NCBI GenBank assembly: GCA_029246605.1 | Contig: JAQWMV010000278.1 | Location: 1 to 63,054 of the forward strand | Direction of reading: 5' to 3' | From: Pseudomonadales bacterium | Lineage (GTDB): Bacteria > Pseudomonadota > Gammaproteobacteria > Pseudomonadales > Azotimanducaceae | DNA length: 63,054 bases | Shown: one piece after another, positions 24,453 to 58,463 of the stretch | How positions within the stretch are numbered: the stretch's first letter is position 1 | How the letters are laid out: each line of letters opens with the position of its first letter | Notes under the pieces: model-generated | Told to the model about the DNA's origin: nothing | What the model saw: the letters and a program-made list of their open reading frames with translations, nothing else | Database searches by the model: none | Translations under genes and position numbers: made by a program

Positions 24453-28434
<3,982 letters not shown>

Positions 28435-28438
<4 letters not shown>

Positions 28439-29532
28439 AGCTTCATTGGCATGACCACGTAGATAGCATCTTCATTATCCGGTTCTTCCAAAACTGCGCT
28501 GCTATTGGCGTCTAGCACTGTTATTTTGATTTTATCGCTATCGAGGACACTCAATACGTCCTGCAAATAGCTTACGTTAAAGCCAATCTCTACAGTATCG
28601 CCTTGATAGTCTACCGATACTGTTTCCTCGGCTTCTTCTTGTTCTGGATTATTGGCGGACAACTGTATATTGCCACTGCTGAAACACACCCTAATGGCAC
28701 GAAATTTTTCATTAGACAAAATTGCCGTCCGACTTAGCGCTTGCCGCAATTCATCCCTGTCAGCAAGTATTGTTCGATTACCACCCTTTGGGATGACTCT
28801 TTCATAATCCGGGTATTTACCATCTAAAAGCTTGGTCGTGAGACTGAACTCTTCGGTAGTCGTACCCAGGTGATTGCTACCAATGGAAATATCCACATCA
28901 CCCTTTACTTCCTGTAACAGCCTTTGCAGTTCCACCACGCCCTTACGAGGCAAAATCACCTGCCGTGAGGATTTCGATCCTGGCACTTCTAAGCTATTTA
29001 GCGCTAATCTATGACCATCCGTCGCGACAGCACGAATGACGCCATCTCCCGTTTCTAGTAACATACCATTCAAGAAAAACCGCACATCCTGTTGCGCCAT
29101 GGCGAAACCGGTTTTATCAAGCAGGTTTTTCAATGCTTTGCTATCGACACTTATGTTCATCTCATCGGCGGTTTTTTCTACCGATGGAAAATCTTGTGCA
29201 GGTAGCGTAGAAAGTGTCGAGCGAAAACGGCCAGATTTGATAACCAAACGCTGCTCCATTTGCTCAAATTCAACCTCTGCCCCATCTGGCAGTTGGCGAC
29301 AAATATCCATAAGCTTCCTGGCTGGAACCGTAATTTCTCCAGGTGTCGCATCTTTAATGCCCACCTTGCCTACCAATTCCACTTCCAGATCCGTTCCTGA
29401 TAACGACAACTGATCAACGGAGACTTGGAACAACACGTTTGATAGTATCGGTAGTGTCTGCCGCCGCTCTACAACACCAGCTACCTGCTGTAAGGGCCTT
29501 AGCAAGGCATCTCTATTAATTGAGAACTTCAT
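28435..29532 (-). CDS. dnaN: DNA polymerase III beta sliding clamp, canonical-looking copy (recF-proximal)
   Basis: 365 aa. It retains E. coli-like motifs: 'ATDGHRLA', 'YPDYERVIP', 'NNPEQEEAEE', 'GFNVSYLQDVL' and the C-terminal 'YVVMPMKL'. Confidence 0.9.
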
Positions 29533-29632
29533 ATGACTTCCGATTCTTGACCTCTTTTAGTCGTTAGTTTGTTAACTTGTTAATCTATGGCACAGCATGT
29601 TAGTTAGTGCTTACTGATCGTATAGAGCTTAT

Positions 29633-30736
29633 TTAAAGCATCATAGGACTGACAACATAGAGCGAGTTTGGATCCTCCAGATCAGTTAGTACACAGGCGC
29701 TATTGGTATCAATAAACGTTACCCTCACCCGCTCACCCTGCATTGTGGATAACGCTTCGAGCAGAAAGCCAACGTTGAAGGCAATCTCCATAGGCTCACC
29801 ATCGTACTCTACGGCAACAGTTTCTTCCGCCTCTTCGTGTAAAGGATTATTAGCATGCAAATCCAACTTGCCTGACGACAACTGAAGACGAACGTTGCGA
29901 TACATCTCATTAGACAAAATGGAAGTTCTATTAAGTGCCTCGCGGATTTCCAGGCGGTTCCCCTGCATTACTTTGTCACCACCGCTGGGGATGGCTCTCG
30001 AGTAATCTGGATACGTGCTATCGATTAACTTAGTTGTTAAAACGGCATTCGCGATGCTTGCCCGCATATGATTACTCGAAAAATGCAACGCTACAGCTCC
30101 CTTCGGAGCATCACTGAGCAGGCGAGATAGCTCTTGAACACCTTTTCTCGGAACGATGTACTGTTGTAGCTCCCCGGATGTCTGATGTTCACCAAAACAC
30201 GTCGCCAGACGCTGACCGTTAGTAGCAACCATCCGAATCTGATTTTGGTCCAGCTCAACTAAAACACCATTGAAAAACAATCGTACATCTTGCTGGGCCA
30301 TCGCAAAACTGGTTTTGCCCAACAAAGAACTCAACAATGATGAATCAACATCAACTGTTGAACCGTCGGTTTCTGGCTCTACGTTAGGAAAATCCACCGC
30401 CGGGAGCGTCGCCAGATGAGACCTAAAACTCCCACTCACGACGGAAAGCCTGCCTTCATCAAGCTTTAGAGTTAACGACGCTTTATCCGCTAGACTACGA
30501 CAGATATCCATCAATTTCCTTGCTGGAACCGTCAATTCGCCCGCTTCGGCCACCTGCACGTCTGTAATTTTTGCCGTAAGCTCTACTTCTTCGTCTGTGC
30601 CTGTAATTGTCAGGCTGTCATCTTCCGCTACCAATAGCAGATTAGACAAAATAGGTAGCGTTTGACGGCGACCCACGACTCCCGCCACCAACTGCAGTGG
30701 ATCTAACAATGATTCTCGACTTATTGTTAGTTTCAT
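29633..30736 (-). CDS. dnaN: DNA polymerase III beta sliding clamp paralog, divergent copy (dnaA-proximal)
   Basis: 367 aa, full length with no stops. By eye about half of its residues are identical to the neighbouring copy. It has 'ATNGQRLA', 'YPDYSRAIP', 'NNPLHEEAEE', 'AFNVGFLLEAL' and the C-terminal 'YVVSPMML'. It starts 8 nt after the dnaA stop. Confidence 0.85.
   Translation of the reverse strand: MKLTISRESLLDPLQLVAGVVGRRQTLPILSNLLLVAEDDSLTITGTDEEVELTAKITDVQVAEAGELTVPARKLMDICRSLADKASLTLKLDEGRLSVVSGSFRSHLATLPAVDFPNVEPETDGSTVDVDSSLLSSLLGKTSFAMAQQDVRLFFNGVLVELDQNQIRMVATNGQRLATCFGEHQTSGELQQYIVPRKGVQELSRLLSDAPKGAVALHFSSNHMRASIANAVLTTKLIDSTYPDYSRAIPSGGDKVMQGNRLEIREALNRTSILSNEMYRNVRLQLSSGKLDLHANNPLHEEAEETVAVEYDGEPMEIAFNVGFLLEALSTMQGERVRVTFIDTNSACVLTDLEDPNSLYVVSPMML
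29744..29752 (-). promoter_or_regulatory. Perfect DnaA box (TTATCCACA on the minus strand) inside the 3' part of the divergent dnaN
   Basis: TGTGGATAA is read on the plus strand, about 210 nt upstream of the start of the second dnaN. A single perfect 9-mer could occur by chance. Confidence 0.35.
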
Positions 30737-32061: not shown

Positions 32062-32305
32062 AAAACCCCCGTGACTACGTTTATGATTATAGCTTCTTGT
32101 TATCTACCAACATGGCTATGCTGAATATACTGAAAAGCTGTTTTGTGCTGTATGTTTGAGTAGTTCATACAGAACACAGAATAGTAACGCCAAACATAGC
32201 GTCAAGCCAAGTGCTGTGATAAAAAAAACAATAAAAAAAATGTTTATTTTTCAATATGTTATACATTAATCACCTCAGTAAGCAGTGATCAACCTGTGTG
32301 TAACT

Positions 32306-32314
32306 TGTGGATAT
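32306..32314 (-). promoter_or_regulatory. DnaA box, 8/9 match (TGTGGATAT on the plus strand)
   Basis: It has one mismatch to TGTGGATAA and lies 39 bp from the perfect box in the same orientation. Confidence 0.45.
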
Positions 32315-32344
32315 AATGCAAATAACCCTAAAGCATTTTTTCTT

Positions 32345-32353
32345 TGTGGATAA
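32345..32353 (-). promoter_or_regulatory. DnaA box, perfect (TGTGGATAA on the plus strand = TTATCCACA)
   Basis: It is an exact consensus 9-mer within the rpmH-dnaA intergenic region. Confidence 0.65.
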
Positions 32354-32440
32354 AGCAGTGTTTAATCCAACAGATATACACATCTTATGACAGGATGTCA
32401 GATATCTAATTCATAAGTTATGCCAACTACAACATACTGA

Positions 32441-32530
32441 TTATTAAATAAAAAATATACTAATCCACAGAAATCTTGCTATTAATAACAATAACAATAA
32501 TTTTATATATATATGTATTATTCATTATTA
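32441..32530. other. AT-rich tract, candidate DNA unwinding element
   Basis: The sequence 'ttattaaataaaaaatatac...attaataacaataacaataattttatatatatatgtattattcattatta' is almost devoid of G/C apart from the embedded DnaA-box-like 9-mer. Confidence 0.4.
32461..32469 (+). promoter_or_regulatory. DnaA box, 8/9 match (TAATCCACA)
   Basis: It has one mismatch, is in the opposite orientation to the other two boxes, and is embedded in the AT-rich tract. Confidence 0.45.
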
Positions 32531-32588
32531 CCCTAAGCTCGGTTTCCTTCTGTTTTTCAAAAACTACCAATTTGAGGTAGTGTTTGGT

Positions 32589-32617
32589 TTGACTGCGATT
32601 AGCTTCTTCTTTAGAAT
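32589..32617 (+). promoter_or_regulatory. Sigma70-type promoter for rpmH-rnpA (TTGACT-17 nt-TAGAAT)
   Basis: The -35 element TTGACT is at 32589-32594 and the -10 element TAGAAT is at 32612-32617, with a 17-nt spacer. It lies about 30 nt upstream of the rpmH ATG. Confidence 0.55.
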
Positions 32618-32646
32618 CCGCGCTCTCTCAATTGGGTCATCCAAAG

Positions 32647-32781
32647 ATGAAAAGAACATTCCAACCAAGTGTAATTAAGCGCAAACGAACCCATGGTTTT
32701 AGAGCACGAATGGCGACTAAGGCTGGTCGTATGGTACTTAAGCGAAGAAGAGCTAAGGGTCGAAAAGCGCTCAGTGCTTGA
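32647..32781 (+). CDS. rpmH: 50S ribosomal protein L34
   Basis: This gene is not in the ORF track because it is under 60 aa. My translation is '[44 protein letters not shown]' (44 aa), the hallmark L34 sequence. Confidence 0.95.
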
Positions 32782-57043: not shown

Positions 57044-57211
57044 ATGAAAAAGTGGCAGTGTATTGTCTGTGGGTTTACTTATGATGAGAAAGAGGGATTA
57101 GTCTCCGAGGGCCTTGCTCCGGGGACAAAGTGGGATGATATCCCTGATGACTGGTGCTGCCCGGAATGTGGTGTAGCGAAGGAAGATTTTGAAATGGTTG
57201 AGGTCGCATAG
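57044..57211 (+). CDS. Rubredoxin
   Basis: 55 aa: '[15 protein letters not shown]...[24 protein letters not shown]', with two CxxCG knuckles. A GAGGA RBS lies about 6 nt upstream. The track ORF from 56942 is over-extended. Confidence 0.9.
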
Positions 57212-57212
57212 C

Positions 57213-58463
57213 ATGGACAGATCACGATTAACCCGAAATATAGTAATTGGTATGTTGGCGGGGTTAGTCGTCGGCTCGTTATTTCACTGGATGGGCGAAA
57301 GTGTTTTATCGAACTATCTGGTTAATGGATTTTTTGATTTTGGTGGGAAAGTTTTTATCGCAAGTCTTAAATTGCTTGTGGTACCTTTGGTATTCTTCTC
57401 TCTAGTTTGCGGCGTAAGCAATCTTTCTGACGGCTCAAGCATGGGGCGCATTGGAATAAAGACCCTGTCTTTGTACTTAATGACAACAGCCATCGCTGTG
57501 ACACTCGCGCTAACGATTGCTACGACAATTAATCCCGGTGTTGGCATAGATCTTGGAGTGGCTACCGAATTCGTTGTGAAAGAAAGTCCGTCTCTAAAGC
57601 AGGTGTTAATCAATATATTTCCTACTAATCCCTTACAGGCAATGGCTGAAGGGAACATGCTGTAAGTCATTGTTTTTGCGATATTAATTGGTGTTTCTAT
57701 CAGTCGGTGCGGGGATCCCGGTACGCGCGTTAGGTCATCTTTAAATGACTGGAACGATGTGGTCATGCGATTGGTGATTATGTTGATGGCCGTTGCACCG
57801 TTTGGTGTGTTCTGTCTGATGGCAACTCTGTTCACCAACGTGGGTCTGGGTGCAATCGCAGACCTGTTCAAGTATTTCATGACGGTAGTAATCGTGTTGG
57901 TAGTACATTTCCTGTTCACCTATGGTCTTGTTGTACGGTTCATGGCGAAACTAAATCCAGTTACTTTTTACAAACGCTTTGCTCCCGTCATGGCATATGC
58001 ATTTAGTACATCCTCGAGTAACGCTACGTTACCCGTCACGCTGGAAACTGTTGAGCATCGATTAGGTGTTAAAAATGAAATTGCTTCGTTTACAGTGCCG
58101 TTAGGTGCAACCATAAATATGGATGGGACCGCGATCATGCAGGGTGTCGCGACGGTATTTATTGCTCAGGCCTATAACATAGACATATCGATGACCGGTT
58201 ATTTGATGGTTGTTTTGACAGCAACGTTGGCATCCATTGGCGCAGCGGGTGTACCGGGTGTGGGATTAATTACATTGGCGTTGGTTCTGCAACAGGTTGG
58301 ATTGCCGGTGGAGGGCATCGCGCTTATTATCGGTGTTGATCGACTTCTCGATATGATGCGTACTGCGGTGAATGTGACCGGCGATGCAGCGGTATCGACG
58401 GTGGTGGCACGTAGCGAAGATAAGTTTGATTTCGAAGTGTTTGAGGCTGAACAGTCTTCTTAG
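57213..58463 (+). pseudogene. Dicarboxylate/amino acid:cation symporter (DAACS, GltP-like) interrupted by one in-frame TAA
   Basis: Track ORFs 57189..57665 and 57759..58463 are in the same frame. The stop at 57663-57665 reads '...AMAEGNML*VIVFAILIGVSI', where the family has 'NMLQ(I/V)IVFAIL', consistent with CAA to TAA. Confidence 0.65.

Follow-up and report, generated by a model that had tools for sequence, protein, structure and literature searches.

Bacterial chromosomes usually carry a single dnaN gene, encoding the β sliding clamp, in the order dnaA-dnaN-recF-gyrB, and the literature consulted here treats the bacterial β clamp as a dimer of one protein, so that its two docking clefts are alike; how the many clamp partners share these two sites is, to our knowledge, still debated. 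We have analysed a stretch of DNA of 63,054 nt from a Pseudomonadales bacterium of the Azotimanducaceae (contig JAQWMV010000278.1 of assembly GCA_029246605.1; this whole stretch is referred to below as the window) in which two complete and strongly diverged dnaN genes lie in tandem between dnaA and recF. The gene adjacent to dnaA is called here the upstream or ‘alt’ dnaN and the gene adjacent to recF the downstream or canonical dnaN.

A second, diverged and full-length dnaN beside the canonical one is found in Bacillus anthracis and other Bacillus spp., where it arose by an independent duplication in a Firmicute lineage. We take the Bacillus dnaN-2 gene not to be adjacent to dnaN-1 in the dnaA operon, and we know of no report of fixed cleft remodelling in its product. 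Bacillus DnaN-2 is about 40% similar to the canonical clamp, its role has been described as ‘mysterious’, a partial division of replication and repair between the two clamps has been inferred, and its deletion had no phenotype (PMC3290774). Extra dnaN paralogues are also known from antibiotic biosynthesis, for example GriR, the self-resistance clamp of the griselimycin cluster, in which the binding site is changed and cleft ligands are bound more weakly (PMC11621423); the mycoplanecin cluster is likewise reported to contain a self-resistance clamp (PMC10817943). Genes of the GriR type are located inside biosynthetic clusters of Actinobacteria, whereas the alt dnaN, in a family of marine gammaproteobacteria, has dnaA and dnaN as its neighbours. 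Heteromeric clamps are familiar from archaea and eukaryotes: in PCNA1-2-3 of Sulfolobus and in Rad9-Hus1-Rad1, paralogous subunits with different partner surfaces give each ring defined client positions. We use these clamps as a working analogy for a possible mixed alt/canonical ring, although they belong to another protein family (PCNA), form trimeric rings and have had their hetero-oligomerisation demonstrated.

A second dnaN in Bacillus and in antibiotic clusters, and heteromeric clamps in archaea and eukaryotes, are therefore already known. What appears to be new is a paralogous β clamp inside the dnaA-recF block that is family-wide and ancient, with fixed remodelling of its partner-binding cleft and an operator-like sequence between the twin genes that resembles a binding site of SlmA. 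A full-text literature search retrieved no tandem dnaN pair, no such cleft signature and nothing on dnaN in OM182, HTCC2089 or the Azotimanducaceae.

Results

Comparison of the two clamp genes

The first-pass annotation of the window, made by a model from the letters of the sequence, had reported two complete dnaN open reading frames (ORFs; 367 and 365 aa) in the dnaA-recF slot, and both were recovered at exactly the positions that it gave (Table 1). Its estimate by eye that about half of the residues are identical agrees with BLASTP, which aligned the two proteins end to end with 190/367 identities (52%; E = 2e-129; 2 gaps), and identity was indeed higher, at 71%, over the first 35 residues. 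The DNA, described as not recognisably repeated, is 54% identical overall and 32% identical at third codon positions and gave no megablast match, and synonymous sites between the copies are saturated, in keeping with a duplication that is not recent. Both copies are intact in 64–65 of 65 tandem loci, and both match the domain profiles PF00712, PF02767 and PF02768 end to end; the three-domain length is kept. The proposal that both encode functional clamps is supported by strong purifying selection on the two genes (see below); this and all other functional statements made here rest on sequence constraint and homology.

Both proteins score well above the cutoff of the NCBIfam equivalog TIGR00663 (311 bits for the alt copy and 349 bits for the canonical copy; cutoff 137.65), yet they are not equivalent, a point that goes beyond the first-pass annotation. 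Their best database matches are different proteins, and the downstream copy is about 70% identical to many annotated clamps. An AlphaFold2 monomer model of the alt protein (predicted local distance difference test score 89.4, predicted template modelling score 0.85) was aligned by Foldseek to the Pseudomonas aeruginosa β clamp 6AMS with a template modelling (TM) score of 0.94, a root-mean-square deviation of 1.9 Å and 50% identity. Both copies share with the canonical DnaN of Escherichia coli (2POL/1MMI) and P. aeruginosa (6AMS) the three-domain fold, the length, the DNA contacts and most interface residues; they differ from it in having F104/S106, and the alt copy differs further in L155F, D173N, H175Q, V247A, M362S and a hydrophobic residue at position 365. 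By fold and family the alt protein is a clamp, yet at its predicted functional surface it is non-canonical.

The partner-binding cleft of the alt clamp

Residues are numbered by alignment to the E. coli clamp, a numbering validated by the agreement of residue identities at all named positions with the literature, and the definitions of the 18-residue partner-binding pocket (subsites I and II) and of the dimer interface were taken from a 2024 review (PMC11139829). Canonical clamps of the set share 58 positions with a conservation of 90% or more, and at exactly five of these a different residue is found in 80% or more of the alt sequences: L155F, D173N, H175Q, V247A and M362S. Four of the five lie within the pocket (Fisher p = 0.01) and the fifth, D173, lies between the pocket residues T172 and G174. 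The five new residues are themselves 97–100% conserved in the alt clade. At position 155, F occurs in 97% of alt sequences, whereas 98% of the remaining clamps have L; N173 and Q175 are invariant (100%) in the alt clade, against 96–100% D and H elsewhere; position 247 is A in 97% of alt sequences and V in 89–100% of others; and position 362 is S in 100% of alt sequences and M in 98–100% of others. In addition, position 365 is M, V or I in alt sequences and K or R in others, and S346 is replaced by A or P; the alt copy of the window has R365M and S346A. H175 and M362 bridge subsites I and II (PMC11139829), and M362 is the ‘gating’ methionine, the corresponding M375L of the Rickettsia rickettsii clamp weakening its affinity for griselimycin (PMC11621423).

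The remaining pocket residues R152, T172, G174, R176, L177, P242, N320, V360, P363 and M364 are kept in the alt clade. In the downstream copy all 18 cleft residues are in the canonical or a commonly observed state, and it is the upstream copy alone that departs from the canonical pocket for the clamp-binding motif. The alt signature was absent from the solved clamps among the matches, and a printed alignment of the P. aeruginosa clamp shows the canonical D173, H175 and M362. The cleft substitutions are thus specific and fixed, and the fold and DNA-contact residues are retained. A preserved ring combined with a rebuilt and then frozen cleft is to be expected from a change of partner specificity and not from neutral drift or decay, and we infer from these residue patterns that the alt cleft has an altered docking specificity.

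Residues of the ring

Residues lining the DNA channel are maintained in both paralogues. In the alt clade R24 is present in 85% of sequences (with K in a further 11%), Q149 in 99%, K198 in 100%, R73 in 91% and R or K at position 80 in 100%; in the canonical copy R24, Q149, R73, R80 and K198 are each conserved at 94–100%. The dimer interface of the clamp consists of a core of I78/F106 packed against I272/L273 and of the ion pairs K74-E298/E300, R96-E300, R103-E304 and R105-E301/E303 (PMC11139829). K74, I78, I272, L273, E300 and E304 are retained in both paralogues, and the ion-pair residues of the canonical copy are each conserved at 86–100%. Changes in the alt copy comprise E298, which is replaced by L, Q or M, and reduced conservation of R103 (R in 69%) and R105 (R in 27%). 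The alt sequence is compatible with ring formation, as judged from these residues.

Selective constraint, phylogeny and origin

Median ratios of non-synonymous to synonymous substitution (dN/dS), calculated by the method of Nei and Gojobori from 13 genome pairs with unsaturated dS, were 0.086 for alt dnaN and 0.041 for canonical dnaN, a comparison that the first-pass annotation had proposed, and 0.035, 0.042 and 0.136 for dnaA, gyrB and recF, respectively. Across 1756 genome pairs there was 1.69 times more non-synonymous change in alt than in canonical dnaN, the ratio exceeding 1 in 99% of pairs, and column entropy was 1.22 bits for the alt and 0.80 bits for the canonical alignment. Both genes are clearly kept by selection, with the alt gene under somewhat looser constraint overall.

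In neighbour-joining trees built from identity-based distances, 240 homologues together with the two window copies formed two clades of 121 sequences each. In a wider set, made up of the paired loci, single-copy outgroups and the best 150 cluster representatives from the profile search described below, the alt type was monophyletic (75 sequences, bootstrap 95), as was the downstream type (65 sequences, bootstrap 99). The downstream protein is more similar than the alt protein to the clamp of Amphritea (59 versus 49% identity) and to that of E. coli (53 versus 43%). This proximity to the outgroups, together with the retained overlap with recF, identifies the downstream copy as the functional, canonical orthologue; the upstream copy represents a distinct paralogue family. 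The question of which copy is orthologous had likewise been posed by the first-pass annotation.

The neighbour-joining tree grouped alt and canonical sequences with P0248, a clamp from a contig of the same synteny that carries only one dnaN (locus L085), to the exclusion of 157 other clamps. Both paralogues have F104 and S106 (the region reads SFRSH in the alt and RFRST in the canonical copy of the window), whereas other clamps have S104 and F or Y at 106; each of the two states occurs in about 1% of the others, and S106 was found outside the two paralogues only in P0248. F104/S106 alters the hydrophobic interface core in a manner specific to this clade, the interface phenylalanine having moved two residues along its strand, and its presence in both copies independently supports an origin within the lineage. 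An apparent gap of 217 nt in L085 was considered as the remnant of a lost second copy; it proved to be the N-terminus of recF including the Walker A motif. Acquisition from a phage or plasmid and a role in defence were also rejected, as no close phage or plasmid relative was found (best identity about 43%, most such matches being mis-filed chromosomal dnaN genes) and the PADLOC defence-system models gave no match. A tandem duplication within the lineage is the best-supported origin, and the trees and shared residues lead us to hold it with moderate confidence.

Distribution of the tandem pair

One genome per Genome Taxonomy Database (GTDB) species was scanned with an alignment of the upstream-type dnaN as seed, which returned 157 relatives, of which 80 loci were fetched. 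Since alt-type motifs served as the seed, the result is that a genome with the alt gene always carries the pair, and it does not extend to every member of the family. The arrangement dnaA-alt dnaN-canonical dnaN-recF-gyrB was present in 60/80 loci and was shared by four further loci from close relatives. Two of the 80 contigs stop after the first dnaN, and the remaining 18, from Amphritea and its relatives, carry a single canonical dnaN and were used as outgroups. Tandem genomes are labelled OM182, HTCC2089, K189A, Candidatus Azotimanducaceae (placed by the NCBI taxonomy in the Pseudomonadales, Gammaproteobacteria) or simply Pseudomonadales, and they include the closed chromosomes CP121333.1, OZ253942.1, OZ255839.1, OZ242359.1 and OY762456.1. 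The nearest species-level relatives of the window are L067 and L001, with identities of about 70 and 79% for the two copies. When 1.84 billion cluster representatives were searched exhaustively with a profile, only about 10 of the best 150 representatives had the alt signature, so that its distribution is narrow. The first-pass annotation had allowed that tandem dnaN pairs might turn out to be common and already characterised in this clade: common they are (60/60 species-level genomes recovered), but no paper characterising them was found. The tandem pair is clade-wide in the OM182/HTCC2089/Candidatus Azotimanducaceae group, ancient and under constraint.

Several individual loci were atypical. 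A dnaA-dnaN-dnaN locus was present on two contigs (L029 and L030; CAXPUI010000110.1 and CAXPUI010000182.1) of a metagenome-assembled genome labelled Candidatus Fonsibacter ubiquis, an alphaproteobacterium, most likely through binning contamination from two different strains. Among the cluster representatives, P0264 is 615 aa long with its clamp match confined to residues 250–615, leaving an N-terminal extension of 250 residues, which may reflect a dnaA-dnaN fusion call or a real fusion. In L081 (JGI contig Ga0315325_0000056, 7095–7299) the recF call is only 283 aa long and begins some 200 nt further downstream than that of L082 (351 aa), an otherwise near-identical locus; the discrepancy may lie in gene calling or may mark a damaged recF 5′ end in that assembly.

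The spacer between the two genes

In relatives the paired genes are separated by spacers of 23–514 nt (median 61 nt) with a GC content of 39%, compared with 49% in the genes. The spacers contain a palindrome with the consensus wGTrAGyrCTyACw, often followed by TAAC/TTAC; in the window the copy GTAAGCACTAAC lies 17–18 nt beyond the stop codon of the upstream gene on the coding strand. The specificity of SlmA in E. coli, GTGAGTACTCAC, spans 12 bp and requires G, T, A and G at half-site positions 1, 2, 4 and 5, with a purine at position 3 and a pyrimidine at position 6 (PMC3020112). The invariant and tolerant positions of the spacer palindrome coincide with this experimentally defined specificity, the palindrome following GTRAGYRCTYAC with the same strict and tolerant positions as the E. 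coli SlmA-binding sequence (SBS) (PMC3020112). Measured against GTRAGYRCTYAC, the copy in the window, GTAAGCACTAAC, deviates once, at position 3, which is tolerant in E. coli, and the closest relative of the window has a perfect GTRAGYRCTYAC site. The 1.04 Mb of fetched loci contain 21 strict GTRAGYRCTYAC matches, every one of them in this spacer. At most one mismatch to GTRAGYRCTYAC was found in 56/65 spacers, compared with 0.2% of shuffled spacers; over the eight critical positions, 62/65 spacers have no more than one. Copies of the palindrome in the single-copy Amphritea loci lie inside the yidC coding sequence and were judged coincidental.

The SBSs of E. coli cluster in the origin macrodomain and none is located in a promoter region (PMC3020112). 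As no fixed gene context has been reported for them either, the pinning of the site to one spacer in 56–63 of 65 genomes is unusual. A promoter or terminator in the spacer was rejected after a consensus scan of its coding strand without a match. An RNA hairpin (5 bp stem with a tetraloop) was rejected as well: on the sense strand, changes of the G-U type (22) are about as frequent as those of the A-C type (21), roughly one-third of sequences lack complementarity at pair 4-11, and Rfam gave no match in the window. A DNA-binding site is preferred because this substitution pattern lends the hairpin no support. Conservation of the SlmA-like palindrome suggests the spacer as the binding place of a dimer of the TetR type, and this binder could be a TetR-family protein other than SlmA; no TetR-family or SlmA gene was found among the window ORFs scanned (some 20, against Pfam). 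Four loci (L058, L079, L026 and L031) have longer spacers of 190–514 nt, which may reflect an insertion, and the downstream copy of L058 is unusually diverged (53% identity to that of the window).

Organisation of the locus

The features of the locus are listed in Table 1. dnaA is the first gene of an operon-like block in which alt dnaN starts 8 nt past the dnaA stop codon, preceded by the Shine–Dalgarno-like sequence GAGAGG, and the stop codon of canonical dnaN overlaps the start of recF (ATGA), a 4 nt overlap that is retained in 53/64 loci. Upstream of dnaA, the cumulative GC skew reaches its minimum at 32–33 kb of the window, GC content falls to 36.5% and DnaA boxes occur at 32306, 32345 and 32461. 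From the skew minimum, the low GC content and the three boxes, the dnaN pair is taken to adjoin the replication origin, and this intergenic region is the probable dnaA promoter/oriC region.

Table 1. Position in the window, strand and basis of the features described in the text
Feature	Position	Strand	Basis
dnaA, 438 aa	30745..32061	-	ORF list; Bac_DnaA Pfam match in relatives' neighbours; tblastn, upstream of pair in all loci
Upstream dnaN paralogue (alt clamp), 367 aa	29633..30736	-	Complete ORF
Spacer between the two dnaN genes, 100 nt, AT-rich	29533..29632	-	
Downstream dnaN (canonical clamp), 365 aa	28435..29532	-	Complete ORF
recF	27383..28438	-	ORF list
gyrB	24972..27386	-	ORF list
Low-GC dnaA-rnpA/rpmH intergenic region	32062..32777	Unstranded	GC 36.5%, GC-skew minimum, DnaA boxes
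alt codon F155 (E. coli L155, cleft subsite I)	30272..30274	-	Read from sequence
alt codons N173-G174-Q175 (E. coli D173-G174-H175)	30212..30220	-	Read from sequence
alt codon A248 (E. coli V247, cleft subsite I)	29993..29995	-	Read from sequence
alt C-terminal stretch with E. coli positions 362 (S) and 365 (hydrophobic)	29636..29650	-	Read from sequence
SlmA-binding-site-like palindrome GTAAGCACTAAC (coding strand)	29603..29614	-	

A further perfect DnaA box, TTATCCACA, is present on the sense strand inside alt dnaN (29744–29752, minus strand), 117 nt before the stop codon. It was rejected as a feature of the clade, only the window and two near-identical relatives (L081 and L082) having one, and it is a species-specific or chance match. 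The whole window contains four perfect DnaA boxes, against a rough expectation of about 0.5 for 63 kb on both strands. Elsewhere in the window, a 234 aa ORF (57759–58463, plus strand) covers only positions 169–386 of the sodium:dicarboxylate symporter profile and has a 158 aa ORF just upstream of it (57189–57665, plus strand); the two may be parts of one symporter gene that has been split or frameshifted, or may result from an error in sequencing.

Discussion

Our working hypothesis, which we regard as on balance the probable one, is that an ancient duplication within the lineage gave rise to a clamp subunit that has become specialised, its orthogonal cleft docking partners with a changed specificity. 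The tandem duplication would have been fixed in the common ancestor of the OM182/HTCC2089/Candidatus Azotimanducaceae group, leaving two subunits with divided roles. The downstream gene, overlapping recF, would supply the canonical β clamp for the clamp loader and the replicase, and the upstream gene, closely coupled to dnaA in translation, would encode a ring-competent subunit. The alt cleft would have been rebuilt (L155F, D173N, H175Q, V247A and M362S, with position 365 no longer basic and S346 replaced by A or P), then held by selection, and would dock a motif or client different from the canonical clamp-binding motif of the QL[SD]LF type. As the interface core (K74, I78, I272, L273, E300, E304 and the clade-specific F104/S106) is near-identical in the two proteins and shows no negative design against mixing, cells would be expected to contain rings with no, one or two altered clefts, and a ring with an altered subunit could reserve a docking site free of competition from the loader and DNA polymerase III (Pol III). 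The SlmA-like site might act as a positionally fixed nucleoid-occlusion site or control read-through into the downstream dnaN-recF genes.

A more specific form of this hypothesis, which we put forward as speculative, is a heterodimeric, asymmetric β clamp that would offer a canonical cleft to the loader and Pol III and an orthogonal cleft to a lineage-specific client, with the SlmA-type operator coupling the make-up of the clamp, or the part of the chromosome near the origin, to the cell cycle and nucleoid occlusion. A mixed ring is favoured by the near-identical interface cores, the absence of general negative design, the adjacency of the genes, the short spacer and the similar ribosome-binding sites. 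A ring with one canonical cleft is plausible because a heterodimer of the E. coli clamp, engineered to keep a single intact cleft, was loaded normally and stimulated Pol III normally, although it was poorly unloaded (PMC2685083).

There are also observations that weigh against the specialised subunit and its mixed ring. The alt loop near the interface that is contacted by the δ subunit is altered (K277 to M, L or V, F278Y and G280N), and an alt homodimer would not be loadable if the altered cleft no longer binds the δ wrench. Covariation across the interface was uninformative in 64 paired genomes, as only the pair 105-301 varies and it follows phylogeny. Shine–Dalgarno duplex energies (−4.3 versus −3.9 kcal/mol, p = 0.42) and GC content at third codon positions are alike and give no hint of stoichiometry; different translation signals for the two copies were rejected on the same data. 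Bootstrap support for joining the alt and canonical clades is about 51%, with or without the single-copy relative. Finally, a Pfam scan of some 20 window ORFs brought to light neither a candidate client with a variant motif nor any gene for the clamp loader, Hda or a polymerase: uvrD, recG, spoT and tag are present, and holA, hda, dnaE, dnaX and dinB were not seen among the scanned ORFs.

The two proteins might alternatively form strictly separate homodimers, a canonical one for the replisome and an alt one dedicated to some single process such as repair, translesion synthesis or the inactivation of DnaA, much as Bacillus DnaN-2 or the 9-1-1 clamp of eukaryotes, with heterodimers rare or irrelevant. 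We consider this possible but rather doubtful. It would account for the retention of all the interface ion-pair residues in the canonical copy, as expected for self-pairing, and the conserved operator-like site could permit different expression of the two genes; known bacterial second clamps, moreover, act as separate proteins (PMC3290774). In one subclade (L071–L080) alt R105E occurs together with alt E301Q, and with E303T too in L079, the canonical copies being acidic at 301 and 303; this resembles charge compensation between alt subunits and would be repulsive in a mixed interface, but the signal amounts to one or two evolutionary events. The near-identical interface core without general negative design against mixing speaks against strict separation, as does the need for the loader to accept both an altered subsite I and an altered δ-contact loop when no second δ is known here. 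That the alt copy is instead an inhibitor-resistant backup clamp, excluding a natural product, toxin or phage protein and still serving the host partners in the manner of GriR, seems improbable to us. The substitutions do fall exactly at the site of cleft-directed inhibitors, where the change M375L of the gating methionine cuts griselimycin affinity (PMC11621423), and extra dnaN copies are a known resistance device. Yet the gene sits in the core dnaA-recF block, flanked by dnaA and by dnaN/recF/gyrB in all 64 loci, with no biosynthetic cluster or defence island, no PADLOC match and only housekeeping genes among the window ORFs scanned within 30 kb; its family-wide retention to synonymous saturation suggests housekeeping, not an arms race, and the new cleft residues are invariant, not diversifying.

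A redundant duplicate kept for dosage, with its differences due to neutral drift, would fit the 1.7-fold faster evolution and higher column entropy of the alt copy and the similar ribosome-binding-site strength and third-position GC content of the two genes. We nevertheless regard this as very unlikely, as the same five replacements at near-universal positions are held at 97–100% in a clade with only about 54% identity among its members, and dN/dS is far below neutrality. That the pair arose artificially in assembly or binning, for instance through the chimeric joining of dnaN genes from two organisms, had been named by the first-pass annotation as grounds for discarding its finding. The risk is general to metagenomes, and the Candidatus Fonsibacter-labelled genome mentioned above contains contaminating contigs of this very locus; however, the same architecture is present in independent JGI, ENA, Logan and NCBI assemblies, closed long-read chromosomes included, and the two copies have co-diverged across 60 genomes, so that we attach practically no weight to this explanation.

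If the asymmetric clamp were real, bacteria would have their own equivalent of the ‘toolbelt’ formed by heterotrimeric PCNA, and mixed rings might be longer-lived on DNA, given the poor unloading of the E. coli heterodimer with a single intact cleft (PMC2685083). The cleft is also an antibiotic target, and the alt clade shows which substitutions a presumably functional clamp can tolerate there. The SlmA-like site provides a second, independent lead, linking the replication operon to the recognition sequence of a cell-division regulator. The hosts belong to the OM182 and HTCC2089 marine bacterioplankton, and both proteins are small and soluble-looking. By long keeping a second subunit with a changed cleft and a largely intact ring, this family represents a natural experiment on clamp-partner specificity, one that bears on which residues set that specificity and on the usefulness of an asymmetric ring.

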